Positions 9,054 to 30,131 of a stretch of 56,591 nucleotides of DNA are shown piece by piece. The stretch comes from a virus (Duplodnaviria; Caudoviricetes). The notes under the pieces were generated by a model. That model ran no database searches and was not told the origin of the DNA. It worked only from the letters and a program-made list of their open reading frames with translations. The stretch is taken from positions 1 through 56,591 of the IMG/VR virus record IMGVR_UViG_3300027861_000038, one strand, 5' to 3'. Every line of letters begins with the position of its first letter. Within the stretch, counting starts at the first letter, position 1. The translations under genes were made by a program, and so were the position numbers.

Positions 9054-9054
9054 A

Positions 9055-9153: not shown

Positions 9154-9157
9154 TGTA

Positions 9158-9568: not shown

Positions 9569-9749
9569 CTTCTAATGAAGACTCAATCTCCCTGAGAAAA
9601 GAGATTAAGTCTTTTAGTTCTTTCTTTAGTGGCTTAAATTCTCGGTCAACTAAAGACTCGTATATAACATTAGAAGAGTCGTTGATTGTGTCCATCAGAT
9701 AGTTAATGTGAGCTATTCTCTCTCTGTCGTATGCTGATGGTTTTGCCAT
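9558..9749 (-). CDS. Hypothetical protein
   Basis: 63 aa ORF tightly packed in the operon. Confidence 0.65.
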   Translation of the reverse strand: MAKPSAYDRERIAHINYLMDTINDSSNVIYESLVDREFKPLKKELKDLISFLREIESSLEDEI

Positions 9750-9753
9750 TGTG

Positions 9754-10311: not shown

Positions 10312-10657
10312 ATTTTTTTTTATTTAAGTAAAATTGTATTGATTTATTTAAGTTAACGTAATCTAAGTATGTGTCTGAGTCAATAGACTCAAAGTCAAGT
10401 AGCAATGGTAGTTCCCCTGCCGTGTTTAAAAATTCTATACGAAAGAATAATGGAGACTTTCCCTTTACCACACCAACCATCTGCTGTGCCCATCTATCCT
10501 CTATCGGTAGGTAGTCTGTAACCTCAACAAGCTGTGTGAGTATATCGTCTGAGTAGTCTGTGAAATCAGATAGGGCTTCAAAGAACCACCCATCCATCTC
10601 AAGTCTTCCTACTATTGGATGCTCATCACCCTCTGTATACCTCTGTTCTGAATCCAT
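10280..10657 (-). CDS. Hypothetical acidic protein (start may be 10597)
   Basis: ORF track and operon context. Confidence 0.6.
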   Translation of the reverse strand: MDSEQRYTEGDEHPIVGRLEMDGWFFEALSDFTDYSDDILTQLVEVTDYLPIEDRWAQQMVGVVKGKSPLFFRIEFLNTAGELPLLLDFESIDSDTYLDYVNLNKSIQFYLNKKKYDNTNTDTDS

Positions 10658-10865
10658 ATCCTTCTAATTCTTTTATTCTGTACTCTTGAAGCGAAGATAG
10701 CTTTCCCTTGGGAGTCTTTATCTCGCTAAATAAAACATCTGTGTGTGGTGGTATAGCCAACAGGTCAGGTATACCATTCTTATTTGTAGTGGTTAGCTTT
10801 ATCACATAGTAACCCTCTGCTTCGAGCTGTTTAATTCTCTTGGTCTGAATTTTCTGCTCGCTCAT
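10626..10865 (-). CDS. VRR-NUC-type nuclease / Holliday junction resolvase
   Basis: SEQKIQ...GIPDLLA...FSEIKTPKGKLSSLQ is typical of VRR-NUC. Confidence 0.85.
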   Translation of the reverse strand: MSEQKIQTKRIKQLEAEGYYVIKLTTTNKNGIPDLLAIPPHTDVLFSEIKTPKGKLSSLQEYRIKELEGYGFRTEVYRG

Positions 10866-10866
10866 A

Positions 10867-12360
10867 TCACAAAGATAGTAAATCCTTTTTAAAATGGTTA
10901 ACAGTATAATCTTTTTTCTTGCTGACAGCTTTATATATATCTCTCTCTATGCCACCCTTGGCAAAGACCCAATACACATCTGACTCAAGTCTATCCTTGG
11001 TTGTCATCCTATCCCGGCTCTGCCAATAAGATGTAGCACTAAAGTCTATGTTATAGTAGACAAGAGCCTCAGCCTGTCGTAGTGAGATACCCTCACGACC
11101 TGACACTATCTGTAGTGCTATCGACTTGTCTGTGTCTTCAAAGACACTAAGCTCTGTGGTTAGGCTATCCTTTCCGTATACCTCCATCAATGCGTTCAAC
11201 TCTTCTTTAAACTTATAGAAGATACCAATCTTGGCATCAGCAAAGTTGTCGTGTATATACTTGGCTTTACTCAAGTCTATAATCTTAGAGTTGCCCGACT
11301 CAAACTTAACTGTGCCTGAGTATATCTGATGTAGTTTCATCATTAGCTTTACAGGAGTATCGCCAAGTATGGTCTCCTCTTTTCCCTCGACTACTAAGTT
11401 CTTCTTTAGCTTGCCTGCTATGCTGTGTGTTAGGTCTGACATCTCTACCTCAAGTACGTGCTCTCGTGTGTCTACCTTGAAGCCTGCCTCTTTTTGAGTG
11501 TATGCAATAGTGTATGGCTTCATCTTGTCCAATATAGTAGTCATACCATCCTTGTATTCGTTGATAAATAATCCGTTTATCTTTCTCTGCTTTACTATCA
11601 CATAGTCTTTAGCAAACTTATAGAACGATACATACTCCTTGAATGGGTTAGATGGTATGGCATATACTTGGTGGTACATCTGACTATAAGACTCAGGTGT
11701 TGGCGTACCTGATAGCAGTATCACGGATGCCTTGGTCTTCTTAATCATATCCCTTACTGCCCTTGCTCTTTTACTTGGCTTAGGGTATGCTCCCATACTA
11801 TGAGCCTCATCACAGATGATGACATCAAACTCAATTGAACTATCAACCTTGTGTAGTGACTCGTAGTTTATAACCACTAAGTTGTAGTCGGGTCTGAGTA
11901 GATTAAAATCATTCTCAATACTACTGATTGCCTTCTTCTTTGTTATGAACAGGACATTCTCACAGCCCATAAGCTGCGATATGCCCATACTTGTAAGTGT
12001 CTTACCTGTCCGCACCTCCATAGCTAAGTATAAGAAGCCGTGCTGCATAAGTATCTGTGTGCCTTTTGATATTATCTCCTCTTGATAATCTCTGAATTTA
12101 ATTTGTTTTGGTTTTTCCATTAGTTCTTTGTAGTGTGTTAGCGATGCCTTGGTCTTGGCATCTAATTCATTGCTTGACTCGTAGACTCTTGTCTTTACGA
12201 TGTGTGAAGCCCGACCTCGACCCACCTTCTTTTCTTTGGTTCTGAATATAATATTGTGGAATATCTCGCATTGTCTATGCATCATCTCGTCTGAAAATCC
12301 TGCTATCCTTTTAGTTATCCCACTCTTATATTCTCCCTTTAATATATGTGCCTCATCCAT
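10867..12360 (-). CDS. SF2 (SNF2-like) DNA helicase
   Basis: Q motif FRDYQ, Walker A EVRTGKT, DEAH box, SGTP motif III, GREGISL and QSRDR. Confidence 0.9.
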   Translation of the reverse strand: MDEAHILKGEYKSGITKRIAGFSDEMMHRQCEIFHNIIFRTKEKKVGRGRASHIVKTRVYESSNELDAKTKASLTHYKELMEKPKQIKFRDYQEEIISKGTQILMQHGFLYLAMEVRTGKTLTSMGISQLMGCENVLFITKKKAISSIENDFNLLRPDYNLVVINYESLHKVDSSIEFDVIICDEAHSMGAYPKPSKRARAVRDMIKKTKASVILLSGTPTPESYSQMYHQVYAIPSNPFKEYVSFYKFAKDYVIVKQRKINGLFINEYKDGMTTILDKMKPYTIAYTQKEAGFKVDTREHVLEVEMSDLTHSIAGKLKKNLVVEGKEETILGDTPVKLMMKLHQIYSGTVKFESGNSKIIDLSKAKYIHDNFADAKIGIFYKFKEELNALMEVYGKDSLTTELSVFEDTDKSIALQIVSGREGISLRQAEALVYYNIDFSATSYWQSRDRMTTKDRLESDVYWVFAKGGIERDIYKAVSKKKDYTVNHFKKDLLSL

Positions 12361-15308: not shown

Positions 15309-16037
15309 TTATAGTTCTTCTGTTATGAAGTATTCATTTATATCCTCCTTTGGATTCTCACCAAAGAACTTATGATATACTGATACTGCTCTCTTTACTT
15401 TCTCTTCGCCTCTTGCTACAAACTCCTCTGATGGATGGTATATACCAAGCTGCTTTGTTGTCTTGTCTACCACATAGAATACTAATGGCTTACCAAATAG
15501 CTTCTGATATATGTAGCATTGACTATCGTAGTTATACTTACGTGCTGACCACTTGAACTGAGTGATATCTCCCGTGGTCTTTAGGTCAATCAGCTTATCG
15601 TTACATACGATGTCAGCCTTACCCTTCCATTGGAGTCCATCAATAGTTGTGATGGCAGGAACCTCATACTCTACACCCTCAGACCTTACTCCCTCAAAGA
15701 ATGATAGGTTACCCATCATTGCATTGACGCAGTCTCGAATCTCTTGTCCCTCTTTCTCAAGCATAATGATACCACCTGCATTGGCATTAACCTGCTCCTT
15801 GTATGCCTTTGTATTCCTACTTGACACATCAATGAAGTTGGTCTCTGCTGCCTTCTCAGGCTCAAGTATTAGCTGATGAAAGTATCTGCCCTTGTGATAG
15901 TTTACATTATCATTCTGTGGCTTTCTGAAGTTTGTTGGGTCATTCAGTAGTGTGCCTATGTCTGAGTTAGACAGGTACTGCTTCCCAAACGAGCCGTAAT
16001 ACTGCTCGTCATCCCTAAGCAATTCTAATACGTCCAT
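15309..16037 (-). CDS. RecE/ExoVIII-like PD-(D/E)XK exonuclease (DUF3799-like)
   Basis: LSNSDI...G..FH..ILEP, WKGKADIV, IDLKTT and YNYDSQCYIY. Confidence 0.8.
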   Translation of the reverse strand: MDVLELLRDDEQYYGSFGKQYLSNSDIGTLLNDPTNFRKPQNDNVNYHKGRYFHQLILEPEKAAETNFIDVSSRNTKAYKEQVNANAGGIIMLEKEGQEIRDCVNAMMGNLSFFEGVRSEGVEYEVPAITTIDGLQWKGKADIVCNDKLIDLKTTGDITQFKWSARKYNYDSQCYIYQKLFGKPLVFYVVDKTTKQLGIYHPSEEFVARGEEKVKRAVSVYHKFFGENPKEDINEYFITEEL

Positions 16038-16038
16038 A

Positions 16039-16680
16039 CTACTTAGTTATCTTTTTAATCTCAGCGAGTGCATTGTCGCTAAGTGTGTATGATGAACTTA
16101 TCTTTTTAACTACTGCATTGTATCCGATAGCCTTGTTCTCTTTACAGAAATTTACCAATGCCTCCCACTTAGGGGAGTCAGTATCCACTACCTCTGACTT
16201 ACTTGGTGTAGGCTTGATTGGCTCTTGTGCTATCGTATCTTGTGGCAAGTCATCGCCTGAGTATAGGTATATACCTAAGCCGAACATCGCAAGGTTCTTA
16301 ACCAAGCATCTCATAATCGTCTTATTGATATCAAATGCCGTGGCAGCAGCAACCTGCTTCTCTCCATATCGTGTAGTGTAAGAGTATGCAACCTTCTTCA
16401 TCGCTTGATTTTTGCTATCCATTACAGGTAGCCACATCGTTAGCGTCTCTCCATCTATTGTTACAGATGTGTAGCACATAATACCTAAGTCATTGTCCAC
16501 TAACATCTCGCCTATCTCATAGGTGGCATCGGGGCAGTTACTCTTTGTAAGACTCCACGCATTTGCCCAAGACAGATACGTTAGGTTACTCTTCTTCTCA
16601 ACGTATTTGTTGACGTTGATGGCAGATAACTTCTCAAAAGTAGTCTGCTTTTTTGTTGTTGTTTTTTTAGTTGTTGTCAT
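16039..16680 (-). CDS. Sak-like single-strand annealing protein (DUF1071)
   Basis: FEKLSAINVNKYVEKKSNLTYLSWANAW, MWLPVMD, DINKTIMRCLVKNLAMFGLGIYLY. Confidence 0.85.
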   Translation of the reverse strand: MTTTKKTTTKKQTTFEKLSAINVNKYVEKKSNLTYLSWANAWSLTKSNCPDATYEIGEMLVDNDLGIMCYTSVTIDGETLTMWLPVMDSKNQAMKKVAYSYTTRYGEKQVAAATAFDINKTIMRCLVKNLAMFGLGIYLYSGDDLPQDTIAQEPIKPTPSKSEVVDTDSPKWEALVNFCKENKAIGYNAVVKKISSSYTLSDNALAEIKKITK

Positions 16681-19842: not shown

Positions 19843-20024
19843 ATACTATTTGCGATAAATATTGTGAATGATACACCTATCATAAATGACATAGTCATCA
19901 CGTATGGTGTAGTTATAGTTAACTCTCCGAATCCAATCGGCAAGAGTAGAGATAGTGCCAATACATATGTTACCATACCGAACGCTATCCTATTCTGCTT
20001 TCTTATTTTTTTCTGTCCTCTCAT
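19839..20024 (-). CDS. Small two-TM membrane protein
   Basis: Basic N-terminus and two hydrophobic helices. Confidence 0.6.
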   Translation of the reverse strand: MRGQKKIRKQNRIAFGMVTYVLALSLLLPIGFGELTITTPYVMTMSFMIGVSFTIFIANSI

Positions 20025-20308
20025 CGTGCCGATTGTACCTTTCTTACTTTAGCTTGCTCAAGCATTTTCTTTAACTCTCTAATCTCACTACTGCTATACC
20101 TCGCAGCCTTGCCTTTCTCTTTGTACTCAGCTATCTGTGGTCTTAGCTTAATATTGAATGTACTTCTGCTGCATCCAAGGTACTCGTAGCACCTCTTGAT
20201 ACTCCATCGTTCATCTAAACTCTCTGTCTCTGCCTCAGCAAGAAACTTAATAAGGAGATTCTTTAACTCCTCTACATCTTTCTCAATTTTATTTAATTTA
20301 TTTTCCAT
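20021..20308 (-). CDS. HTH_17/excisionase-like DNA-binding protein
   Basis: WSIKRCYEYLGCSRSTF...ARYSSSEI. Likely start MENKLNK. Confidence 0.65.
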   Translation of the reverse strand: MENKLNKIEKDVEELKNLLIKFLAEAETESLDERWSIKRCYEYLGCSRSTFNIKLRPQIAEYKEKGKAARYSSSEIRELKKMLEQAKVRKVQSAR

Positions 20309-20318
20309 AATTTTATTT

Positions 20319-20573
20319 TTAATCTCTAATAGGTTCTGTTTCGTCTGTTCCACAGAACTCCCAATCATCTATGTTATCTCTAATGAATAGTTCAATATCT
20401 TTTAATGCAATCCCCTTATCATCAGAGGATAAATCTATATCGAACTCAACTCCATTGATAATTAATGTTGAGTCAATATTCTCAACGCAATAATAATCCT
20501 CAATCTCATTTGCATCAAAGGTATGCACCATATGTACACTATCTAATGTGCCATCTGTTAATGTATACATCAT
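20319..20573 (-). CDS. Hypothetical acidic protein
   Basis: 84 aa, D/E-rich. Confidence 0.55.
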   Translation of the reverse strand: MMYTLTDGTLDSVHMVHTFDANEIEDYYCVENIDSTLIINGVEFDIDLSSDDKGIALKDIELFIRDNIDDWEFCGTDETEPIRD

Positions 20574-20734
20574 CTCTTTACTGTTGCCTTTAATTTGTCC
20601 CTACTTATCCAAGCATATCTTGGTTTGTTCTCTTGGTATACTCTGTCCTCTGCCTCCCATTTGGAGTGTGCAGATACAACCTCAATAAACTTGGTCGCAT
20701 ACCTCACGTTGTACATTCTTTTAGTCTCTCTCAT
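20570..20734 (-). CDS. Hypothetical protein
   Basis: Likely start MRETKR, coupled to its neighbours. Confidence 0.5.
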   Translation of the reverse strand: MRETKRMYNVRYATKFIEVVSAHSKWEAEDRVYQENKPRYAWISRDKLKATVKR

Positions 20735-20942
20735 TGTATCCCCTTTCTTTACCAATGTCATAAATCCTTTCTTGGATTTTTTCTATTATCCAATGGCTTG
20801 TTAATACCTCATCGAGTACATCTTGTGCATCGTCATCGGATACATCCTTAAACTTGTCTTTAACATCGTCAATGTGCCATATGTTACCTACATAATAACC
20901 TGCGTCCATAAGTGCTTTTCTTGTTTTATTATTATTTTTCAT
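20721..20942 (-). CDS. Hypothetical protein
   Basis: WHIDDV...DAQDVL pattern seen in small phage early proteins. Confidence 0.6.
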   Translation of the reverse strand: MKNNNKTRKALMDAGYYVGNIWHIDDVKDKFKDVSDDDAQDVLDEVLTSHWIIEKIQERIYDIGKERGYNERD

Positions 20943-20987
20943 AATGTCTTTCTAATTTTTTTACAATTATAGTATAGAAATACTATA

Positions 20988-21320
20988 CTACCTAATTTTA
21001 TCTATTCTTTTATTATAATCTTTTGATACTTGCCTTACTTCCTCAAGTGTGCAGTCCATTTCTATGTTAGCTGAGTAGTCTATGTCATTGTCCATACAGA
21101 ACTTACCCAATGTGCATCCGTGCAATGCGTCCAATACATTTGCTTGGTTTAAGATTCGCTTTGCCTCTGTCTCATAGCCTATCCCCTTTGCCCTCTGATA
21201 TGGCATAAGGAACTCTCGCTTGAATGTCTTGGACTCAACCAAGATAGTGCCTGAGAAATAGCTTGCACCATCTACGTCATCGTAATGCTCGAAGCATTCT
21301 ACTCTTATTCTATTGCTCAT
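20988..21320 (-). CDS. Hypothetical protein
   Basis: 110 aa ORF. Confidence 0.6.
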   Translation of the reverse strand: MSNRIRVECFEHYDDVDGASYFSGTILVESKTFKREFLMPYQRAKGIGYETEAKRILNQANVLDALHGCTLGKFCMDNDIDYSANIEMDCTLEEVRQVSKDYNKRIDKIR

Positions 21321-21951
21321 TGTACCACTTAATAAATTCTATAACTACATAATGACACGCTATTAGGCTATCAGTATTAAATTCTTGATAAAGAATATCA
21401 TTACCTTTTACTATTAAACATTGCCAATCTTTATCTATTGGTTGGAAGTTCTTTTCAAATGTATATCCTAGTAACTCTATCTTCTCCACCACGGGCATCA
21501 GCCAATTCCATTCGTCATAAGGTAAAAACTCTGCCTCATACCATTCGCCACTATCAAACTCTCGGTGGTAGTACTCTGTTATGCCTTTGTTAGATACTTC
21601 CATTTCTAAATCCATAAACTCTGCTATTAATCTGTTATCTGTCATCTTACTTGCTTTGTACCACTTAATAAATTCTACTACTGCATTATGCAAAGACTTA
21701 ACATCCCATATGTTGTCGCTACCAACCTCTGTAAGTAGTGAAACAACCTCATCAAGAGGTTTGTCTATTTTGCGTGATATTTTCATTACCACAGGCATAA
21801 GCCAAGTCCAAGAGGTGTAATATTCCATTGATTCAATAGGTACTACCTCGTTTCCTTGAGGTGTCATTTGTATCATTACTGAATTATCGTTAGGGTCTCC
21901 ATAGGTCATACCCATAAACTCTGCGATTAATTTGTTGTTTAACTCTCTCAT
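21310..21951 (-). CDS. Protein with two tandem copies of an N.LIAEFM...W.WLMPVV.KI...EFIKWY domain
   Basis: Internal duplication visible in the translation. Likely start MRELNNK. Confidence 0.7.
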   Translation of the reverse strand: MRELNNKLIAEFMGMTYGDPNDNSVMIQMTPQGNEVVPIESMEYYTSWTWLMPVVMKISRKIDKPLDEVVSLLTEVGSDNIWDVKSLHNAVVEFIKWYKASKMTDNRLIAEFMDLEMEVSNKGITEYYHREFDSGEWYEAEFLPYDEWNWLMPVVEKIELLGYTFEKNFQPIDKDWQCLIVKGNDILYQEFNTDSLIACHYVVIEFIKWYNEQ

Positions 21952-21952
21952 C

Positions 21953-22162
21953 TTACTTACTTTTTTGAGGTAATACAAGGTAAACAATCGCTCCCAGTAA
22001 GGATAGAATAAACAAGGTAGTGATACTGAATGACACCATCGTAAAGATGTCATTACTCACATCCTCTGCCATTGAGACAATCATTCTCGCTGCGTTCACG
22101 AATACGAATAGCAATGCATTTGCTATTAAAAACTTCTCTGTAATTTTAATTAATTTTTTCAT
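21953..22162 (-). CDS. Small two-TM membrane protein
   Basis: Two hydrophobic helices. TAnnTTTG core at 22195-22202 (minus). Confidence 0.6.
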   Translation of the reverse strand: MKKLIKITEKFLIANALLFVFVNAARMIVSMAEDVSNDIFTMVSFSITTLFILSLLGAIVYLVLPQKSK

Positions 22163-22222
22163 ATTTTTTTTTATCTTTTTGTTGTTAATTTATTCAAAGG
22201 TAATACCTAAATTGTACAGATC

Positions 22223-22432
22223 CTAATCTGTTTCAGCTATCTCGTTTAACTTTAGCCAAAAATCCTTATATCCGTGAGCATTTACTGCAATTCCCGAATG
22301 TTGCCAATTGTGAGGCGAGTCTACTTTTTTAGTAACCTTTCGCCATCTTAATGAATTTCCACCACGAAGATGAATAGGTTTGCACCTTACCATCTGACCT
22401 ACTTTAATTCTTTCTACTTTTAAATTTTCCAT
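22223..22432 (-). CDS. Array gene 12, hypothetical
   Basis: 69 aa, downstream of hairpin R1. Confidence 0.65.
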   Translation of the reverse strand: MENLKVERIKVGQMVRCKPIHLRGGNSLRWRKVTKKVDSPHNWQHSGIAVNAHGYKDFWLKLNEIAETD

Positions 22433-22495
22433 AATATTTTTTTTCTGTTACTACCAATAGCCCTATACCAAATGGTATAGGGCTATTAGTTTGAT

Positions 22496-23047
22496 TTAGA
22501 ATGATGGGTCTCTGTACTGTTCAGCTACTCCAAAAATAATCGAAGTTCTACTGAAGTTTTTGTACTTCTTTGTCAAACCGTCAATTAGCTTATGATAGAA
22601 CATTCCTTCTCCTTCTCCTTCAACTATATCGTCATATGTCAAACCACGTTCTGATAGTAATATGTCCAGCCATCCGTATCCGTACTCCTTGTAGTACTTC
22701 TTCTCTAAGGACTTAATTATATCTACAGAGTAACTAATTTCTCCCCAACAAGATTTCTTTGCATTCCATTCTAACGTTAATGTATGTCCTTCTGAATTGT
22801 CGCTATACTCATAACGCTCGTCTCCGTAACTCTCTCCTACAAACTTAGTGTTCATTTCTTGAATCACGCAGCTCAAACCATCATCGGACACCTCAATAAC
22901 TTGGTACGCTTGTCTGTCTGAATACCCTAAAATTGTTGCACCTTCTCCAACAATTGGAATGCTTGAATTGTTGCCCATCATTTGGTTAATAAAGCCTCCA
23001 GCAACACCAACTTTTCTACTTTGTCTTTTTTCTATTTCGTTTTTCAT
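22496..23047 (-). CDS. Array gene 11, hypothetical (VGEGATILGYSDRQAYQVIEV motif)
   Basis: 183 aa, downstream of R2. Confidence 0.75.
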   Translation of the reverse strand: MKNEIEKRQSRKVGVAGGFINQMMGNNSSIPIVGEGATILGYSDRQAYQVIEVSDDGLSCVIQEMNTKFVGESYGDERYEYSDNSEGHTLTLEWNAKKSCWGEISYSVDIIKSLEKKYYKEYGYGWLDILLSERGLTYDDIVEGEGEGMFYHKLIDGLTKKYKNFSRTSIIFGVAEQYRDPSF

Positions 23048-23106
23048 AATATTTTTATACTACCAAATCCCGTACACCAAGTAGATGTACGGGTAAGTTT
23101 TTTACT

Positions 23107-23433
23107 TTAAATTTGAGACCAATCCGACCATAATTGTGCAATCAAAAGATTCTCAATATCTATTTTATTATATATCAAATGATATATATTTTCAAATGCC
23201 ATTTGCCTTTCATTTTCAAACCTTTCTCCTGTCAATATAGATGTATCAAATGGTGTAAAATCTCCAATTATTCTGCTTATTTCCCTTGCTTTGTGGTAGT
23301 ATATTACGTTTTCGTCATTATCAATCATCTCCCAAATTAGGTCATTTAGTGTATCAATATCTTCAATTTCATTGTCTGCAATTAAATCTTTGATTTGCTC
23401 TGTGTACTCGTTTATTAAATTTTCTATTGTCAT
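23107..23433 (-). CDS. Array gene 10, Ocr-like acidic DNA-mimic (anti-restriction) protein
   Basis: Start MTIENL lies right after R3. MTIENLINEYTEQIKDLIADNEIEDIDTLNDLIWEMIDN...YY aligns by eye with T7 Ocr [39 protein letters not shown]...YY (Ocr recalled from memory). Confidence 0.6.
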   Translation of the reverse strand: MTIENLINEYTEQIKDLIADNEIEDIDTLNDLIWEMIDNDENVIYYHKAREISRIIGDFTPFDTSILTGERFENERQMAFENIYHLIYNKIDIENLLIAQLWSDWSQI

Positions 23434-23479
23434 ATACCACCAAATCCCGTACACCAATTAAGATGCACGGGTATTGATG

Positions 23480-23528
23480 TGTTATTTGCACGGGGGCAAA
23501 TGTTATTTGCACGGGGGCAAATGTTATT
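23480..23528. repeat. 21-bp tandem repeat (TGTTATTTGCACGGGGGCAAA)x2.3
   Basis: Exact copies at 23480-23500 and 23501-23521, then a partial TGTTATT. Confidence 0.95.
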
Positions 23529-23532
23529 ATGA

Positions 23533-23973
23533 CTATGCACCTATAGCCCTTTCAGATTCTGCATATGCGATATTATATGCTTCCTCATTAATGCATCTGT
23601 CGTTGATGCTTAGAATTTTTTCTTGTTGTTGGGTTAAGGAATCATAGTCAATTATATTATTAATCTTAGTTCCTCCACAGGCATCACATTCAATGTCTGT
23701 TCTTCCACTAAAATAATCCTCGTGAAAACCCTCATCTATAATTCCATTTTCATCGTACATCATCGATGAAATGTCATATCCTCCCACATCATATCTTGAC
23801 CTATGCCCACTTCCATTACAGGTGTCACACCAATCAACTTTGCAAGGTAGAATGGTTTTACAAATCCCATCTGAGATAGTTATTTTAGACTTTAAATCAT
23901 CTGAGAAATCTTCTTCCTCGTATCTGTAGATAAAACTTTTGTGCAATTTGTATTCAATTTTTTTACTTTTCAT
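23533..23973 (-). CDS. Array gene 9, CxxCxGxG zinc-finger protein
   Basis: CDTCNGSG and CDACGGTK. Start MKSKK directly follows R4. Confidence 0.7.
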   Translation of the reverse strand: MKSKKIEYKLHKSFIYRYEEEDFSDDLKSKITISDGICKTILPCKVDWCDTCNGSGHRSRYDVGGYDISSMMYDENGIIDEGFHEDYFSGRTDIECDACGGTKINNIIDYDSLTQQQEKILSINDRCINEEAYNIAYAESERAIGA

Positions 23974-24037
23974 ACCACCACATCCCACATACCAATGAAG
24001 ATATGTGGGTAAGTGTTTGTGATGGGTTTGCTTTGTT

Positions 24038-24184
24038 TTAAATTATTATTAATATAAATTTCCGAAATGGCAGTTTAATTCTATAAATTGACCCGTTGTA
24101 ATTTTTGTAAGCTAATGATATTATTTTAGCTTGGTTGTAATTCTTTGCAAATGTTCCGATTCGTACTTTCATTTTTGTGTTCAT
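24038..24184 (-). CDS. Array gene 8, 48-aa basic peptide (MNTKMKVRIGTFAKNYNQAKIISLAYKNYNGSIYRIKLPFRKFILIII), missing from the ORF track
   Basis: Hand translation. It fills the slot between R4 and R5 and has the same A-rich AAAATATT-ATG leader as array genes 1, 11 and 12. Confidence 0.6.
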   Translation of the reverse strand: MNTKMKVRIGTFAKNYNQAKIISLAYKNYNGSIYRIKLPFRKFILIII

Positions 24185-24250
24185 AATATTTTTTTTCTGT
24201 TACCACCTAAACCCGTACACCAATTAAGATGTACGGGTATTGATGTGTTA

Positions 24251-24478
24251 TTATAAATTATCTCTACTTGAGTTATTTACTATCATTTGACTGGTAGGTG
24301 CTATTCCAAAATAAGTGTTTAATTTACCATATATATGTCTACAATGGTTCATTATTTTCTCTGAATCATATTCTAATTGTTCCCCTTTGTAATCTGTAAC
24401 GGGATACCATATAGTTTCAAACCCTTCATTCACGAAAGTTACCCAAGCCATTTCTTTATCTAATTCTATTCTGTTCAT
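24251..24478 (-). CDS. Array gene 7, hypothetical
   Basis: 75 aa, ATG directly after R6. Confidence 0.75.
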   Translation of the reverse strand: MNRIELDKEMAWVTFVNEGFETIWYPVTDYKGEQLEYDSEKIMNHCRHIYGKLNTYFGIAPTSQMIVNNSSRDNL

Positions 24479-24539
24479 ACTACCAATAGCCCTACACCAT
24501 TTGGTGTAGGGCTATTGTTTGTGATGTGATAAGGATTAA

Positions 24540-24767
24540 TTAATTTTCCTCTAAATGTTGCTGAATTAAATTGCTTTCTATTAAAAAGCATCCGATGATT
24601 TTAGATTGGGCAATTTCGGTTAAAATCTTATCTACTGAGTAACCTTTTATGCCGAAATTACGATACAAATATTGAATTCTTAATGCCTCAAGTAATTCTT
24701 GTGCATCGCCATTTAAGATTTGCTTTTTTTCAACTTCTACCAATTTATTAAATTCTTTTCTTGTCAT
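24540..24767 (-). CDS. Array gene 6, hypothetical
   Basis: Start MTRKEF directly after R7. Confidence 0.7.
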   Translation of the reverse strand: MTRKEFNKLVEVEKKQILNGDAQELLEALRIQYLYRNFGIKGYSVDKILTEIAQSKIIGCFLIESNLIQQHLEEN

Positions 24768-24826
24768 ACTACCAAATCCCACAAACCAATTAAGATTTGT
24801 GGGGATTGTTTTGTGATATGTTTGGA

Positions 24827-25048
24827 TTAATGGAAATATAAATCTTCGTGAGACGTTGCTCCAATTGGCTCGCCATACACATAGTCGTTTATTGCCTTAT
24901 CCATCAACTTGTAATAGATGGAATCGATGTACTCATCCCTACAATTGCTTTGCATCTGGTTACCATCGCTGAAATGCACTTTAAACACTGGACTCATTCC
25001 TGCTCTAACGCGATAAATTTTAGTTACTTTTAAATCTGTTTTTGTCAT
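24827..25048 (-). CDS. Array gene 5, hypothetical (MTKTDLKVT...)
   Basis: 73 aa, ATG directly after R8. Confidence 0.75.
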   Translation of the reverse strand: MTKTDLKVTKIYRVRAGMSPVFKVHFSDGNQMQSNCRDEYIDSIYYKLMDKAINDYVYGEPIGATSHEDLYFH

Positions 25049-25104
25049 ACTACCAAAACCCGTACACCATTAAGATGTACGGGTATTGATGTGTTTGTTG
25101 TTGT

Positions 25105-25368
25105 TTATGTCCAATAATTTTTAATCCTCAAACCTTTAGTTCTTATGGCTTCATTCATTTCGGCAGAACTTACGGTAAAAAAATTATCTTTGAAATCTTG
25201 AAAGAATTCGTAAGAATTTTCCCAATTTTCTATGTGTTTTTTTGAATCCACGAAAAGAAATGCTTCTTCTTCGCTTTCAAACTCATCGATAACTTTGTTA
25301 TTGTTACCTCCATCTATTAAAAAATAGGTGCTTTCATTTGTTGTTACTTTTAAATCTGTATCTGTCAT
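25105..25368 (-). CDS. Array gene 4, hypothetical (MTDTDLKVT...)
   Basis: Start directly after R9. Confidence 0.75.
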   Translation of the reverse strand: MTDTDLKVTTNESTYFLIDGGNNNKVIDEFESEEEAFLFVDSKKHIENWENSYEFFQDFKDNFFTVSSAEMNEAIRTKGLRIKNYWT

Positions 25369-25428
25369 ACTACCAATACCCCACATCCATTGTCTAGGAT
25401 GTGGGGTATTGTTTGTGATGTGATGTTG

Positions 25429-25674
25429 TTAGTATAATTCGCTTTTTTCGATTCGCTTTACCTCATATTTTGGCAACTCATAGCAATAGTCTAAATATTT
25501 ATCAAATGAACTTTCGCATTTTTTGTCCCATTTTTTGTAGGATTTTTCATCCCCTTCGCTATCTGCAATGTTTCTTAGATTGTCGTATTCATTGTACTTT
25601 TTTAGCCATTGTATGGCCTTCTTGAAATTGCTTTGATTCGCTTTATTTTTTGCTTTAAATTTTGTATCTTTCAT
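25429..25674 (-). CDS. Array gene 3, hypothetical
   Basis: 81 aa, ATG directly after R10. Confidence 0.75.
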   Translation of the reverse strand: MKDTKFKAKNKANQSNFKKAIQWLKKYNEYDNLRNIADSEGDEKSYKKWDKKCESSFDKYLDYCYELPKYEVKRIEKSELY

Positions 25675-25729
25675 ACTACCAAAACCCCTACACCAAATGG
25701 TGTAGGGGTATTAGTTGTGATGGTCATAA

Positions 25730-25975
25730 TTATCCTTTATAATTTACCTTTATCCAACTTAATAAAATGTCTTTGTTTTGGTCATCTAATTCCATAAACC
25801 AAGAAAAAAAAGCTAGTGTACCTTTTCGTTCATACATATCGCTAAACTTAGATTGTAAGTGATTTGACATACTATCCTTCCATACTTGTGAGATGAAATT
25901 TGTAGGGTAATTATGCCCAAATAACATAAATTTAGTGATTGCTTTTGATGTGTTTTTAAAATCTGTGTTTGTCAT
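25730..25975 (-). CDS. Array gene 2, hypothetical (MTNTDFK...)
   Basis: 81 aa, after R11. Confidence 0.75.
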   Translation of the reverse strand: MTNTDFKNTSKAITKFMLFGHNYPTNFISQVWKDSMSNHLQSKFSDMYERKGTLAFFSWFMELDDQNKDILLSWIKVNYKG

Positions 25976-26034
25976 ATACTACCAATAGCCCTATACCAAA
26001 TGGCATAGGGCTATTGCTTGTGATGGGTTAGGGA

Positions 26035-26358
26035 TTAAGATAATAATCTTTTAATATCTGCTTCTGTTTTTTTACGTTTAGCTGATTCCATTTCGTATGC
26101 AATCACCTCTTTTTGCACAAACCATTCCACAACTGCTCTGTTTTCATCCATACCATCACAACCCCAACTTGTGCCCGAAACACCGTCTTTTTTAACCCAC
26201 ATAACTGCTTGGAATAAATCACCATACTTTGGATTGATTTCTACACGATAGTTTACTTCCAATCCATTCTCAAGATGAATAGTTTTCTTGCCGTTTTCTT
26301 TGTTTGCTACAACTGCAAATCTGTCTAATTTCTGTAATAATTCTTTAACGTTTTCCAT
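26035..26358 (-). CDS. Array gene 1, hypothetical
   Basis: 107 aa, after the divergent hairpin R12. Confidence 0.75.
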   Translation of the reverse strand: MENVKELLQKLDRFAVVANKENGKKTIHLENGLEVNYRVEINPKYGDLFQAVMWVKKDGVSGTSWGCDGMDENRAVVEWFVQKEVIAYEMESAKRKKTEADIKRLLS

Positions 26359-26428
26359 AATATTTTTTGCTTTATATCACCAAAACCTCGCAGCCGTGGT
26401 ATGGCTCGAGGTTCCAATTTATTTTAGT

Positions 26429-26440
26429 ATGTCAATGAAC
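26429..26440 (-). promoter_or_regulatory. boxA-like antitermination motif GTTCATTGACAT
   Basis: Resembles rrn/lambda boxA (GCTCTTTAACA) and lies in the array leader. Confidence 0.45.
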
Positions 26441-26511
26441 CAGGGTAGTCCCTACTATAGTGTCCAATAAAATGGACGCTGCTTTCGGGGTCGGTTACCT
26501 TTTCAACAATG

Positions 26512-26519
26512 CAAATATA
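26512..26519 (-). promoter_or_regulatory. Bacteroidota -7 promoter element TATATTTG driving the early array
   Basis: CAAATATA on the + strand matches TAnnTTTG. It is ~155 nt upstream of array gene 1. Confidence 0.65.
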
Positions 26520-26705
26520 ATATCACAGATATCATATAAACTAATTTCTTTGTAAAATAAATTAATCTTTTGTTAATATATTATCTTGTATCTCAGCAAT
26601 ACTGCGCCTTTCAGAGCGAAATTTTTTTTGTGTTTTTTTCCCTTCATTCGTTTAGGCTGGCAAAATTGCGCCCAGGGATTAAGCCTTCCCTCAAGGTATG
26701 CAGGC

Positions 26706-26857
26706 TATATATATATATATTGTATGGGGATATTATACGGGTATGGGGTAACGGGTAACGGGTAACGGGTATAGGTACGGGGTGCGTAAAACGGGTAGGT
26801 AGGTAGGTAGTGCCATAGATAATGTAGGTAGGTATGTAGGTAGGTAGTGCCATAGGT
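26706..26857 (+). repeat. Low-complexity G-rich block: (TA)n, (GGGTAAC)3, (GTAG)n, GTAGGTAGGTAGTGCCATAG x2
   Basis: Read directly. It lies at the divergence of the two transcription arms. Confidence 0.9.
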
Positions 26858-26984
26858 AAACGCCAAAAAATTGGACTGCAGGGATCACATCAACACCCCA
26901 CCCTAACTTTTTTTTTCGGTTTTCTTTTTCGGCAACTTTGCGTGCAACCCCCTATAACCCAAATAGTATATACAACTAATGTGT

Positions 26985-26992
26985 TATATTTG
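26985..26992 (+). promoter_or_regulatory. TAnnTTTG promoter core (first of a set)
   Basis: Other + copies upstream of genes: 27651, 30146, 31217, 34418, 41048, 44578, 52938. Minus copies: 10870, 18185, 22195, 26512. Confidence 0.7.
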
Positions 26993-26995
26993 CAT

Positions 26996-27139
26996 ATGAG
27001 TTATAAGATATCAATACACAATCGCATATTCATAGGCTTCGCATTGGGATGGAGTTACTATGGGAAGACAGAGGAATATGACTACAGTGAGTTCACATTG
27101 TTCTTAGGGTTGTTGAGTATCGTTATAGTAAGAAGTTGA
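26996..27139 (+). CDS. Small hydrophobic protein (MSYKISIHN...)
   Basis: ATG just after the promoter core. 47 aa. Confidence 0.55.
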   Translation: MSYKISIHNRIFIGFALGWSYYGKTEEYDYSEFTLFLGLLSIVIVRS

Positions 27140-27143
27140 TATT

Positions 27144-27341
27144 ATGAAAATGTTTAAGTATAAAAGTATGGGCGGTCTTCGAGTAGAGGACGGTAGATTA
27201 GTTAACGACCGTGAAGACGGTGTAACAGGAATTGCGAAAGCTGCAAACGTCAAACAGATGATGAAGCGAGCAAAGAAAGTTGATATGATAGCGGACGGAA
27301 TTAGTCTTGCTGAAGCCAAGAAAGGATTTTATAGGATGTAA
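27144..27341 (+). CDS. Hypothetical protein
   Basis: 65 aa, followed by a terminator. Confidence 0.65.
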   Translation: MKMFKYKSMGGLRVEDGRLVNDREDGVTGIAKAANVKQMMKRAKKVDMIADGISLAEAKKGFYRM

Positions 27342-27368
27342 ACCTATAATTTTGTGTTGTTCATTTAT

Positions 27369-27395
27369 AAGGGAATTTAACGATTCCCTTTTTTT
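27369..27395 (+). terminator. Intrinsic terminator
   Basis: AAGGGAAT-ttaacg-ATTCCCTT followed by a T-run. Confidence 0.8.
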
Positions 27396-27445
27396 GTGTT
27401 TGTTTTTTACATTTCAATGCTCTTTTTATGCTCTTTTTTTTCTTC

Positions 27446-27566
27446 TAACTTATTGACTATCAATAGTAGTGTTTAAAATGCTTATTTTTTCTTTCAAAAG
27501 TTCTATAAGTAAAAATATATATTACTACTACTACTACTACTACTATAGGGGAACCGGAATTTTACA
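27446..27566. repeat. Copy 2 of ~120 bp non-coding element, contains (TAC)7
   Basis: Homologous to 14820-14937. Confidence 0.75.
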
Positions 27567-27687
27567 TTGAGCATTGTTGGGATTGTTGGGAGTAGTTGGG
27601 ATTATTCCTAACTCCCAACTTTGGTATTACCCTAAGTGAATATTTTTATGTATCTTTGCAATAGAATTAAATACACTCTAAAATTAT

Positions 27688-29271
27688 ATGTCAGAAATCG
27701 GATACACTCCCAAGAACTTATTGTTCAATGAAGATGGTAGAGAAAGATTATTCTCAGGTATTGAGAAATTAGCAAATGCGGTCAAGTCAACATTAGGACC
27801 ATCAGGTCAGACTGTACTTATCGAGTCCCCACAACACACACACGGAATCACAGTTACCAAAGATGGTGTAACGGTAGCCAAGTCAGTATCACTCCTTGAC
27901 GCTACAGAGAATCTCGCTGTACGCATTATGAGGGAGGCAAGTGAACGAACTGCGACTCAGGCAGGTGATGGTACTACAACAGCCATAGTATTGGCTGAGG
28001 CACTCGTAAAAGAAGCCTACAAGCATTTGAACGATGGTAAGCACAACAAGACTATGGTATTGAGAGATATCGTAAGTGAGACTGAGAAGATTGTAAGCGA
28101 GTTAAAGAAGAAGAGCCGTAAGGTAAACAAGTCGACCCTAAGGGATGTGGCTACCATATCAGCGAACAATGACAAGGAGATTGGCTCCATCATCGCTGAG
28201 GTGTACAAGAAATTAGGCAAGCACGGTGTTGTTGCGGTTGACAAGTCACAGACCTCTGAGACATACTATGAGGCAACGAGTGGTATCAAGATTGACCGAG
28301 GGTATGCAAGCCCATTGTTTGTGAACGACCAAAAGAAGGACGAGTGTGTACTTGAGGACGTATTCATCTTGGTATCAGATGCAACGATTGAGAACATACT
28401 TCAGATTGAGACGGTATTGAAACCAATCATTCAAGAGAACAAGCGACTATTGATAATAGCCCCGACATCGGGGAATGTGACGAACACATTAGCTGCGAAT
28501 GTTATGAAGAGTAACTTACAGTTGTGTGCGATACAGCCACCAAACTTTGGATACAAGCAGCACGAGCTTATGCAAGACATAGCGATAAGTGTTGGTGCAA
28601 CGTACTTTAGTGAGAAGACGGGTGATGACCTAAGTCATATGACGTTTGCTGACTTGGGACACGCATCAAGGGTTGTGGTAGGCACAGACTCAACGGTTGT
28701 GATAAAGGATGACAATGCGTTAGAGGATGAGATTAAGAGTAGAGCAGAGGAGTTAAGGATTGCTGCTGACAATTCAACCAAGAAGGCAGACAAAGAGTTT
28801 ATAATGTCAAGGATAGCCTCATTGATGGGTGGCGTAGGTGTCATCTATGTAGGTGGGAATACTGACCTTGAGCAGAAAGAGTTATACGATAGGGTTGACG
28901 ATGCGGTATGTGCGGTACGTTCGGCACTTGAGGAGGGTATACTACCCGGAGGAGGCGTTGCCTTGTACAAGATGGCTGAGGGTATTGACACGAGCACGGT
29001 ATCGGGTAAGATACTATCAAAGGCTTTAATGGCTCCAATGTTGCAGATATATGAGAATGCAGGACTGACTGTAGGTGGCTCACGTATGAGTGATGAGTTT
29101 AACTACGGACAGGACGTAAAGACTGAGGAGTATGGAGATATGTACGAGTTGGGTGTTATAGACCCTGTAAAGGTTACGAAGTGTGCATTGCAGAATGCGG
29201 TGTCGGTTGCAGTAACTATCCTATCAACCAATGCTATCATCACGATGGCGAGAACATACGAAGACAAATGA
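27688..29271 (+). CDS. groEL: Phage-encoded chaperonin GroEL
   Basis: AVKSTLGPSG, TKDGVTVAK, AGDGTTTA, VATISANND, GILPGGG and GVIDPVKV. Confidence 0.97.
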   Translation: MSEIGYTPKNLLFNEDGRERLFSGIEKLANAVKSTLGPSGQTVLIESPQHTHGITVTKDGVTVAKSVSLLDATENLAVRIMREASERTATQAGDGTTTAIVLAEALVKEAYKHLNDGKHNKTMVLRDIVSETEKIVSELKKKSRKVNKSTLRDVATISANNDKEIGSIIAEVYKKLGKHGVVAVDKSQTSETYYEATSGIKIDRGYASPLFVNDQKKDECVLEDVFILVSDATIENILQIETVLKPIIQENKRLLIIAPTSGNVTNTLAANVMKSNLQLCAIQPPNFGYKQHELMQDIAISVGATYFSEKTGDDLSHMTFADLGHASRVVVGTDSTVVIKDDNALEDEIKSRAEELRIAADNSTKKADKEFIMSRIASLMGGVGVIYVGGNTDLEQKELYDRVDDAVCAVRSALEEGILPGGGVALYKMAEGIDTSTVSGKILSKALMAPMLQIYENAGLTVGGSRMSDEFNYGQDVKTEEYGDMYELGVIDPVKVTKCALQNAVSVAVTILSTNAIITMARTYEDK

Positions 29272-29474
29272 TTTGCCCAATCTGTAAAAAAGAGATGATA
29301 TGGGGAGGAAACCACGACTCTGAGGATTATTGGGGCGAAGAGGCTGAGGGTGGTATAGTATCAAACGCATCCTGTCATAATGACGAGTGTGATGTGGACA
29401 CGGTGCTGATATACAACAGGACGACAACCCACTTAGACTTGTACGACCCGGAGAAGGGAATAGAAATAGATTAG
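29268..29474 (+). CDS. Small Cys-rich (zinc-ribbon-like) protein
   Basis: MICPICKKEMIWGG...CHNDEC. ATGA overlap with the groEL stop. Confidence 0.65.
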   Translation: MICPICKKEMIWGGNHDSEDYWGEEAEGGIVSNASCHNDECDVDTVLIYNRTTTHLDLYDPEKGIEID

Positions 29475-29476
29475 AT

Positions 29477-29734
29477 ATGAAACCAATAGGACCATATATT
29501 TTAGTAACGGAAATCAAGGAGGAGATTAAGACTGACTCAGGCTTACTCCTCTCAAGTAATGACGCAAAGGAGCTTCGCTATAAGAAGGCTCAGGTTAATG
29601 CGGTAGGTACAGACGTATCGAATGTATTAGCAGATGACCTTGTGTACTATGACTCAAGGGCAGGGTATACGATGATAATAGACGAGAAGCAGTATACTGT
29701 AATCAGTCTACGTGATATCGTTGTTGTCTTGTAA
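29477..29734 (+). CDS. groES: Co-chaperonin GroES
   Basis: MKPIGPYILV...KTDSGLLL...VNAVG...DIVVVL. Confidence 0.88.
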   Translation: MKPIGPYILVTEIKEEIKTDSGLLLSSNDAKELRYKKAQVNAVGTDVSNVLADDLVYYDSRAGYTMIIDEKQYTVISLRDIVVVL

Positions 29735-30131
29735 ACTTGTTCATACGTTTGATAAAGTTCCGATAGACCTTATCCATATAGGGGACATTATTTCTAAAGA
29801 GGGGATTTGACCCTTCTGATTCGGGAATCTCTTCGCCCTCAAGTTTTTTGTAGACGGAGGTAAGCATACGATTGGCTTTGTATGAGAGCTTGTATACAGC
29901 CCTCTTTCCATTCTTGGCGTTTCTAAACTTTTCTATCCAACCTCTTTCTCTTAGGCTCTCGAACCTATTCTTATCCCACGAGATAAGCTCATTGAACTCA
30001 TCAAACTTATTCTTATCGAAATACTTTTCACTTCTAAGGAAGAGCAAGAACTCCAAGTCGGGTGCGGAGAGATTGTACTTAGACTGAACAAAGTATCTAA
30101 CGGGTCTCCAATATTTAAGGTAATCTTTCAT
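29703..30131 (-). CDS. Winged-helix (MarR-like) regulator
   Basis: LSAPDLEFLLFL...LRERGWI...AVYKLS. It is the only minus-strand gene in the late arm. Confidence 0.6.
   Translation of the reverse strand: MKDYLKYWRPVRYFVQSKYNLSAPDLEFLLFLRSEKYFDKNKFDEFNELISWDKNRFESLRERGWIEKFRNAKNGKRAVYKLSYKANRMLTSVYKKLEGEEIPESEGSNPLFRNNVPYMDKVYRNFIKRMNKFTRQQRYHVD

Follow-up and report, generated by a model that had tools for sequence, protein, structure and literature searches.

Hairpin-linked gene array in a marine phage of Flavobacteriia

The DNA analyzed here (hereafter the window) is the whole of IMG/VR virus record IMGVR_UViG_3300027861_000038, 56,591 bases long with an estimated completeness of 93%, and it contains a minus-strand array of 12 consecutive small genes, each preceded by one copy of a structured element of about 54 nt. 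The phage proteins of the window find their matches in phages of Flavobacteriia; the primase-helicase, for instance, shares 67.8% identity with that of uncultured podovirus MW202828.1 and 39% with that of the Flavobacterium “elemo” phages. On the strength of these matches, the locus is assigned to a marine phage of Flavobacteriia. The plus-strand modules comprise the structural genes and the terminase, and next in gene order come a phage GroEL gene, a divergent control region, the minus-strand cassette array, and the replication and recombination genes. No close relative was found in the annotated phage collection by megablast of window positions 20000 to 30000.

The copies of the element were identified by reading the minus strand and by scanning for the tail motif. 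Exactly 12 were found, all on the minus strand between 22447 and 26426, one ahead of each consecutive small open reading frame (ORF); copies c01 to c12 and genes g01 to g12 are listed in Table 1. The element consists of a CA-rich 5′ flank, a hairpin of 10 to 15 bp with a loop of 4 to 8 nt, and a conserved 3′ tail, (U/A)UGGURGU. In all 12 copies the hairpin is followed by (U/A/G)(U/A)GGURRU, which ends in GGUAGU, GGUGGU, or, in leader copy c01, GGUGAU, while the 14 other matches to variants of the bare 8-mer in the window all lack a hairpin context. The 5′ flank reads CAUCACAAAC-AAUA, or ACACAUCAAUA in three copies, and is weak or absent in c01, c11, and c12. Downstream, the ATG lies 0 to 2 nt after the element in 8 of the 12 copies (short form) and behind an A-rich spacer in the other 4 (long form), the spacer measuring 14 to 19 nt in c01, c08, and c12 and about 9 nt in c11. 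The distance to the upstream stop codon varies from 3 to 60 nt.

A covariance model, R1, was then built from the 12 window copies and used to scan the whole window with filters off. It recovered the 12 copies at 49.9 to 69.8 bits; antisense echoes of the same sites aside, the best score for anything other than an array copy was 16.7 bits (E value of 0.077), and the best outside the array was 15.4 bits (E value of 0.18). At gathering thresholds, no Rfam family matched anywhere in the window. A preliminary description of this DNA had noted 12 minus-strand ORFs each led by one structured element, with the AUG directly behind it or behind an A-rich spacer and without copies outside the region, and the reading, the motif scan, and R1 agree with it on all these points. 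As for the consensus that it proposed, the 5′ CAUCAC part is missing from three copies (c01, c11, and c12).

All 12 elements fold as hairpins (−17.6 to −29.7 kcal/mol, with z scores of −3.75 to −8.46); among 200 shuffles per copy, none folded as well as the real sequence for 11 copies, and one did for the remaining copy. Over the 12 window copies, the main helix (helix 2) is 88.9% paired and has double (compensatory) changes at 9 of its 15 pairs, which none of 500 column shuffles reached, and sliding the helix partner by 1 to 3 columns reduces pairing to 34 to 45%. The same holds for a set of 56 copies (39 distinct, from nine sources), in which 89.2% of cells are paired compared with 33 to 46% in slid controls, and 74 cells show double changes compared with 19.4 in shuffles (0 of 500 reach this number). 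The 10-bp core stems fall into 17 distinct types, 15 of which are fully paired, and the c01-type leader hairpins of the window and of a related contig, L120, differ by two compensatory double changes. Since U-G pairs are frequent (one position is U-G in 17 of the 39 distinct copies and a second in 16) and correspond to A-C mismatches on the opposite strand, the fold belongs to the mRNA-sense strand. Taken across copies, the covariation shows selection of the hairpin for pairing on that strand. Single-sequence folds also pair the CA-rich flank with the tail, but this outer helix is 41% paired in the alignment and its register is not conserved; with the flanks included, the helices contain internal loops and average about 18 to 19 predicted pairs, the short forms reaching 22.

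The preliminary description also placed promoters at the two ends of the array. TAnnTTTG motifs, the Bacteroidota −7 type, are indeed present there, and they are the only intergenic motifs of this kind on the minus strand; none lies within the 12 elements. Because the motif is not enriched across the window (72 found versus 58 ± 8 in shuffles), a promoter function of the two end motifs is only plausible. A scan for sigma70-type promoters likewise gave no enrichment (26 found versus 27.7 in shuffles).

Occurrence of the element and exchange of cassettes among relatives

A gapped pattern taken from the element matched 11 metagenome loci, 8 of which carry the element, with 2 to 12 sense-strand copies each and 44 strong copies in total; the other three (L122, L124, and L128) gave no R1 match. 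Two IMG/VR contigs, L135 and L139, also carry it, so that the search with a covariance model beyond the window, which had been suggested earlier, places the element in ten other metagenome or virome contigs. The two ATG spacings recur among the 42 distinct copies, with 31 short and 11 long forms. More distant material was empty. R1 found nothing below an E value of 0.3 in 43 loci around homologues of the neighboring 247-amino-acid (aa) gene, 11.9 bits at best in the syntenic early region of GenBank relative MW202828.1, chance-level single matches (20.6 bits at best) in 37 IMG/VR loci drawn by the bare 3′-tail pattern, and one match of 22.6 bits in 32 loci around g11 homologues. A pattern scan of genome contigs for a host or prophage copy yielded four loci, none with an R1 E value of ≤0.001. 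The element thus appears confined to a narrow lineage.

To compare the arrays, the ORF behind each copy was translated and the products were clustered by blastp into families. The window and the eight metagenome contigs together yield 22 cassette families, to which L135 and L139 contribute three or more, for a total of at least 25; at least 13 of the families found between elements are absent from the window. Gene content and order differ in all ten contigs. While the window reads g01 to g12, the orders (N denoting new families) are g01 g02 g03 g04 N4 g05 g06 in L127, g06′ g02 g03 g04 N4 g05 in L130, N4-end g05 g06 N2 g07 in L129, g09 g08 g07 g10 g04 N4 g05 N5 N6 N7 N8 g09 in L125, N9 g10 g04 in L123, and N10 g06 in L126. 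Three contigs include both conserved flanks: L120 (55 kb), with g01 g06 g03 g10 N1 N2 N3 g12; L135 (44 kb), with g03 g10 N11 N6 N2 and an N1-like gene; and L139, with a new last cassette. Single cassettes are inserted between genes that adjoin in the window, as with N4 between g04 and g05 (L127 and L130) and N2 between g06 and g07 (L129), and the head of the array is replaced as well, the same leader preceding g01, N9 (L123), or N10 (L126). The flanks are collinear, with a nucleotide identity of 90 to 96% in L120, L121, L135, and L139 (90 to 94% for L120, L135, and L139). Many shared cassettes are 100% identical in protein sequence to the window copies and yet have different neighbors, which points to recent exchange rather than slow divergence.

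The breaks in synteny fall at the elements. When the eight metagenome contigs were aligned to the window (blocks of ≥100 nt and ≥85% identity), 26 of the 27 block ends inside arrays fell in the span from 25 nt before an element to 35 nt past the ATG, which makes up 36% of the array (binomial P = 7e-11), and the outlier lies 2 nt outside it; the narrower span from the element start to 15 nt past the ATG (22% of the array) holds 16 of 27 (P = 3.5e-5). The same gene can be found behind different stems (three for g05; two or three for g04, g06, and g07), and a stem stayed with the upstream gene in one case (g08 and the c09 stem before g07 in L125) and with the downstream gene in another (g10 in L125). 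The crossover points themselves vary, lying in the 5′ flank, at the foot of the stem, at the ATG, or several codons downstream of it, as in the chimeric N terminus at L120_e3, where a g02-like MTNTDF is joined to a g03 body. Crossovers scattered in this way argue for homologous recombination between short diverged repeats and not for a site-specific enzyme.

Parts of the locus are also held by 20 public seawater or marine sequencing runs from 14 studies. Logan contigs of three runs from three studies (X2, X5, and X6) were placed on window positions 21000 to 27500; as contigs and not reads, they attest the existence of molecules and carry no frequencies. One joint, 23466 to 24233, runs from c10 to c08 over 20 shared letters and skips g09 and g08; a second, 24473 to 23969, is present in all three runs and connects the start of g07 to that of g09; a third, 24011 to 25087, occurs in two runs. 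At some joints, the intervening letters make up additional stem variants in which the pairing is compensated. A 1,050-nt contig of X5, at a depth of 36.5, reads g08-g07-g10, which is the order in L125. Parts of the stretch lack contig cover in runs X2, X6, and X11, and this was not read as evidence. The addition, loss, and swapping of genes at the repeats that had been put forward from the window alone is thus supported, the run contigs having joints that end in elements and the relatives having no fixed gene order. In these sequence comparisons, the junctions are shown to be where single-gene cassettes have been inserted, lost, replaced, or reordered among relatives.

Smaller variation is seen at an exact 21-bp tandem duplication between g09 and c10 (23480 to 23521), each unit of which holds a small hairpin. 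Its copy number varies, since one run contig has a 21-nt gap there and L125 has a single copy.

Cargo genes, neighboring genes, and other hairpins

The 12 cargo ORFs, of 48 to 183 aa, do not cluster with one another by blastp, in keeping with the unrelated bodies described earlier; g02 to g05 share their first ~8 codons, and the repeat extends about 25 nt into these ORFs. A Pfam scan of 10 of the 12 cargo proteins and another of ten new cassettes from relatives gave no match, and a PHROG scan of all 12 gave one strong match (g04, function unknown) and two weak ones. The only cultured homologue of g04 is in Nonlabens phage P12024S/L. When the 12 proteins were compared by tblastn with the loci of relatives that lack the element, only g02 (36% in L047) and g04 (in the Nonlabens phage) matched, and none matched in L048 or L087. 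The g11 protein, with no Pfam or PHROG match and with viral hypothetical proteins as Atlas neighbors, has relatives in 32 IMG/VR loci, where its gene usually stands directly behind a promoter motif. The CxxCxGxG motifs of g09 are of the kind found in DnaJ zinc fingers, and g09 has no Pfam match.

Two proposals about the cargo are not supported. The gene described as Ocr-like, g10, is acidic, but it has no Pfam or PHROG match and no usable match among Atlas features, its Atlas structure rows have TM scores of ≤0.50 and no named family, and its AlphaFold model, derived from a five-sequence alignment, has a confidence score (pLDDT) of 56.1, too poor for the model to be used in a fold search. Nor do the cargo genes lend evidence to the anti-defense label, as only g04 has a strong family match, to a family without known function. 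From the position and variability of the locus, an anti-defense role is no more than a reasonable guess.

Table 1. Positions of the array elements, cargo genes, promoter-like motifs, and recombination genes in the window
Feature	Position	Strand	First T of tail 8-mer	Remarks
TAnnTTTG promoter-like motif, array head	26512..26519	-		motif match
c01, leader element	26373..26426	-	26383	13-bp stem with one bulge, then UUGGUGAU and A-rich spacer; R1 49.9 bits; -18.2 kcal/mol
g01	26035..26358	-		107 aa
c02, short form	25975..26026	-	25985	R1 61.6 bits; -27.4 kcal/mol
g02	25730..25975	-		81 aa
c03, short form	25672..25723	-	25682	R1 67.7 bits; -27.9 kcal/mol
g03	25429..25674	-		81 aa
c04, short form	25366..25421	-	25376	R1 59.2 bits; -29.7 kcal/mol
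g04	25105..25368	-		87 aa; phrog_33529 (family without known function)
c05, short form	25046..25098	-	25056	R1 69.8 bits; -23.5 kcal/mol
g05	24827..25048	-		73 aa
c06, short form	24765..24818	-	24775	R1 69.1 bits; -19.8 kcal/mol
g06	24540..24767	-		75 aa
c07, short form	24476..24527	-	24486	R1 67.6 bits; -29.0 kcal/mol
g07	24251..24478	-		75 aa
c08, long form with A-rich spacer	24199..24252	-	24209	R1 67.4 bits; -23.7 kcal/mol
g08	24038..24184	-		48 aa; basic
c09, short form	23971..24024	-	23981	R1 62.3 bits; -24.6 kcal/mol
g09	23533..23973	-		146 aa; two CxxCxGxG motifs (read from translation)
c10, short form	23433..23486	-	23443	R1 69.8 bits
g10	23107..23433	-		108 aa; acidic, net charge -17
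c11, long form	23056..23108	-	23066	R1 60.8 bits; -17.6 kcal/mol
g11	22496..23047	-		183 aa; widespread phage family without known function
c12, long form	22447..22498	-	22457	R1 62.6 bits; -28.4 kcal/mol
g12, last cassette	22223..22432	-		69 aa
TAnnTTTG promoter-like motif, just past array	22195..22202	-		motif match
Sak-type single-strand annealing protein	16039..16680	-		PF06378, E 1.8e-41
PD-(D/E)XK exonuclease (DUF3799), adjoins Sak gene	15309..16037	-		PF12684, E 9e-17

Lying between the GroEL operon and the array, the divergent control region (26690 to 26860) contains about seven short repeats of the TACCCGT type, an (AT)n run, and a 29-nt direct repeat (26794 to 26822 and 26831 to 26859). 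These repeats could be a regulatory or origin-like iteron field, and the contigs of the sequencing runs are broken within the region, at 26858. The GroEL-type chaperonin is encoded at 27688 to 29271 (phrog_5725, E value of 7e-137). Past the structural genes, a giant ORF of more than 3,004 aa (3 to 9053) runs off the contig start, with no match in Pfam, PHROG, or PDB sequences. Just past the array, the 247-aa gene (21310 to 22053) is an internal duplication of a unit of about 100 aa, with relatives in 42 IMG/VR loci; it is missing from L120, L135, and L139, where its flanking genes adjoin, which represents an indel outside the hairpin array.

Other hairpins were observed in this phage group. 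A diverged element-like hairpin (25 to 29 bits with R1) lies outside the main array in L135 (sense, 8843 to 8895) and L139 (1722 to 1774), where it precedes a 73-aa and a 54-aa gene, respectively, between homologues of the window genes at 20988 and 20740; according to R1, the window has no such hairpin at that position. In L087 (MW202828.1, 30000 to 60850), an invariant perfect 16-bp palindrome, GTGTCGTTAACGACAC, is present in at least 14 copies between about 13746 and 21786, of which, by coordinate reading, about eight lie in short gaps before small genes and several inside annotated ORFs. It bears no sequence relation to the window element and may serve as a binding site for a protein or form a small hairpin in RNA. 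In L048 (IMGVR_UViG_3300025276_000005, 5482 to 11811), there are seven copies of a different, GATGTCCGCTTAAGCGGATGTC-like hairpin, three of them directly behind a 63-nt repeat holding a TAnnTTTG promoter-like motif. This repeat and hairpin form a promoter-plus-hairpin unit in a flavobacterial-type phage, similar to the promoter-early stem-loops (PeSLs) of T4-like phages. Intergenic hairpins thus seem to be a habit of this phage group, with lineage-specific sequence. A literature search for such repeats in Flavobacterium or Cellulophaga phages returned no report on a Flavobacterium phage among the matches listed.

Possible roles of the junction and comparison with known systems

The array genes start in an unusual context. 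For the other 38 phage genes, positions −20 to −1 are 55% A, with a mean minimum free energy of −5.0 kcal/mol and a mean pairing probability of 0.31; for the 8 short-form array genes, the values are 14% A, −25.7 kcal/mol, and 0.82, the long-form genes being intermediate. According to the available passages of the cited studies, Flavobacterium start regions are normally A-rich and unstructured (PMC6847099), and initiation in Flavobacterium johnsoniae is favored by upstream adenines and low structure, Shine-Dalgarno (SD) pairing being unused (PMC6847099; PMC7797042). The hairpin at the start is thus a costly departure that is kept by selection and therefore needs a function. Given the sense-strand covariation and the position of the repeat, a role as an expression or processing signal is plausible, and endonucleolytic processing, protection of cistron ends, insulation of the start region, and damping or attenuation would be candidate roles. 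Consistent sequestration of the start codon was rejected, as no more than 11 of 31 short forms have an AUG pairing probability above 0.5. Hairpin promoters for a virion RNA polymerase (N4- or crAss-like) are unsupported, though not disproved, the giant ORF having no Pfam, PHROG, or PDB sequence match and the array, like those of its relatives, lying behind host-type promoter motifs.

We consider it likely that the elements, themselves devoid of promoters, form RNA hairpin joints between the cistrons of one early operon and double as crossover points for homologous recombination. The locus would be transcribed as a single polycistronic, probably early, operon whose cistrons are joined by a standard junction. 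Sak- and exonuclease-type pairs recombine short homologies, and the phage's own pair would exchange cassettes at these repeats. On the mRNA, the hairpin would act as punctuation: it may end or protect the RNA of each cistron, perhaps once an endonuclease has cut there, as RNase III does in T7, and it may insulate each start region from whatever neighbor recombination brings, so that, as we propose, a newly joined ORF would be expressed from the single upstream promoter. That the array is real, well delimited, and evolutionarily active, with a role of the repeats in recombination, is supported by the comparative and population sequence data.

Several observations weigh against this interpretation. 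In a Flavobacterium-type host, initiation should be impeded by a strong hairpin at the start codon, and what we call insulation may for this reason really be repression. The sense-strand hairpins lack a U-tract, and a simple terminator scan calls none of the 12 on the minus strand, while four elements satisfy the terminator rule on the opposite strand (22456 to 22487, 24484 to 24517, 25374 to 25411, and 25684 to 25709), with TTTGTGATGT-like tails. No RNA run holding the locus is listed among 21 runs. As the ~17 stem types recur in different contexts by recombination, the cell counts overstate the independent covariation events, which number in the teens and not in the seventies. Two junctions in relatives are without the element, namely, N6-N2 in L135 and one at a small gene in L139, and the involvement of Sak and the exonuclease is an inference. 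Finally, the relatives are all short-read metagenome assemblies, in which repeats can cause chimeric joins, and the last junction of L121 (L121_e4, g03 to g02 again) is doubtful, stopping 46 nt past the ATG. As a separate observation, no plus-strand gene is placed so as to need the four opposite-strand terminator-like hairpins.

The chimeric joins just mentioned would, if taken to their conclusion, make the shuffling an assembly artifact and leave the array fixed in nature, which we regard as most improbable. The families between elements that are absent from the window could not have arisen by chimeric joining of window sequence; the same adjacencies turn up in separate contigs (g04-N4 in three, N4-g05 in four, and g10-g04 in two), including contigs of different accession series and the Logan contigs of three studies; and the two long contigs with both conserved flanks have different arrays. 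Scarcely more probable is an integron-like system, in which the hairpins would fold in single-stranded DNA as attC sites do and be cut and joined by a dedicated recombinase. The one-directional array of promoterless small cassettes with conserved flanks, the single promoter, and repeats that keep structure rather than sequence are all reminiscent of it. However, neither a tyrosine recombinase (PF00589), a serine recombinase (PF00239), nor a Y1 transposase (PF01797) was matched in this ~93%-complete genome, while control genomes were positive (14 of 14 for PF00589); the absence of an integrase and the presence of recombination genes had been noted in the preliminary description, and both are confirmed, but its integron analogy fails for lack of a recombinase and of a fixed crossover point. 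Moreover, a stem type keeps consistently to neither the upstream nor the downstream gene, g04 and g05 occurring with two to three stems, and the core stem has no GTTRRRY-type core and no conserved extrahelical bases.

The remaining alternatives concern the RNA. The hairpins may be substrates of an endoribonuclease, either host RNase III or a phage enzyme, that yields monocistronic messages as in T7, with shuffling as a by-product, and this is a possibility to be taken seriously although we would not expect it to be correct. Upon cleavage, one product would retain a protective hairpin while the following one would have a very short leader, and the cut would remove the structure that buries positions −20 to −1 of 8 of the 12 starts; the helices with their flanks, the location between early-looking genes behind one promoter, and the sense-strand G-U pairs are in line with it. 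Against it, the core stems are perfect but fall short of the about two helical turns typical of RNase III substrates, the outer pairing has no conserved register, and Rfam gave no match in the window. It is rather doubtful that the hairpin and the UGGURGU tail form a translation signal for ribosomes that ignore SD sequences, the helix docking at the site of the SD duplex or the CA-rich flank serving as a stand-by platform so as to set the initiation rate of each cassette. The strict ATG spacing in two classes, the attachment of the element to starts while its distance to the upstream stop varies, the A at −3 in GGUAGU-AUG copies, and the co-conserved first ~8 codons fit this idea, and start-associated repeats with an upstream inverted repeat in Cluster K mycobacteriophages offer a precedent in the passages available (PMC3203893); yet structure at the start lowers translation in F. 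johnsoniae and A-rich leaders raise it, as far as the available text goes (PMC6847099), inspection revealed no ribosomal sequence complementary to the tail, and AUG pairing is inconsistent. Less probable still are partial attenuators, each hairpin stopping some polymerases to create an expression gradient and to prevent read-through into the next module. The position past each stop codon and the two to four U residues after some stems would suit them, and PeSL stem-loops were shown to terminate (PMC2839356, available passages), but no sense-strand terminator was called, twelve attenuators in series would nearly silence the distal genes, and g11, the tenth gene downstream here, has family members directly behind a promoter in other phages.

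A more speculative extension of the joint model, to which we give little weight, is a plug-and-play expression adaptor for hosts with SD-blind ribosomes: a self-contained hairpin 0 to 12 nt from the AUG, either clipped to give a near-leaderless message or docked on the ribosome platform in place of an SD helix, would together with an annealing recombinase allow cassette capture without an integrase. If so, any ORF that gains the ~50-nt joint could be recruited, transcribed from the shared promoter, and passed between coinfecting phages. Apart from this extension, the process can be followed in public seawater metagenomes, in which the same cassettes are present side by side in many arrangements, and the joint is a compact test case for how SD-blind ribosomes handle structured leaders. 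R1 also provides a handle for harvesting the cassette pool of this phage group, whose families so far are all of unknown function; anti-host or anti-defense genes would be expected in such a pool, in which the cassettes are candidates only.

Among known systems, integron arrays resemble the locus in layout only, with a single promoter, one-directional promoterless small cassettes, and structure-conserved repeats; here there is no integrase, no fixed crossover, and no attC core, and the repeat goes with the beginning of the following gene and not strictly with the end of the preceding one. The REP/BIME elements associated with RAYT differ by their Y1 (HUH) transposase, PF01797 having no match in the window. 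The RNase III signals R0.3 to R1.3 of the T7 early region are conserved hairpins between the cistrons of one early polycistronic transcript, as the window elements probably are, but the core stems in the window are shorter and perfect, with no sequence relation and no Rfam match, and T7 RNase III sites are not known to serve as shuffling points. The SAS/ESAS repeats of Cluster K mycobacteriophages (Pope et al. 2011, PMC3203893), as the available passages describe them, are asymmetric motifs a few bases before the starts of nonstructural genes, with an imperfect inverted repeat and a variable spacer upstream, and their function is unknown but thought to be translational. They have an SD-like GGAG within a 13-bp GGGATAGGAGCCC-like motif 3 to 8 bp before the start and are scattered over half a genome, whereas the window tail has no SD-like core and another sequence, and the element stands at every array gene; cassette shuffling is not reported in those passages.

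The closest system is that of the PeSLs (Arbiol et al. 2010, PMC2839356; Comeau et al. 2014, PMC4122927). In the available passages of these papers, PeSLs are repeats of a promoter and a stem-loop that precede ORFans in hyperplastic regions, and promoter and terminator activity have been shown for them, as has a part in indels, replacements, and mini-circles. Both they and the window element are intergenic stem-loop motifs of about 50 nt right before small ORFans in a hyperplastic early region, with G-T pairs in their stems, and in both, close relatives differ by gene insertions, deletions, and replacements that arise from recombination between copies. Here, a stable stem-loop precedes all 12 genes, and recombination between copies is reflected in the block ends, the orders in the ten contigs, and the run-contig joints. 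The PeSL repeat, however, has a sigma70-type early promoter and an SD sequence, both of which the window repeat lacks; the array depends on one upstream promoter-like motif, and its hairpin abuts the start codon. PeSL phages are T4-like, whereas the phage studied here has a Bacteroidota host and its closest GenBank relative, the sole guide to morphology, is annotated as a podovirus. Recombination at repeated regulatory joints, through which T4-like phages diversify their early ORFans, thus also occurs in an unrelated marine phage of Flavobacteriia, and what is new here is a joint with neither promoter nor ribosome-binding site.

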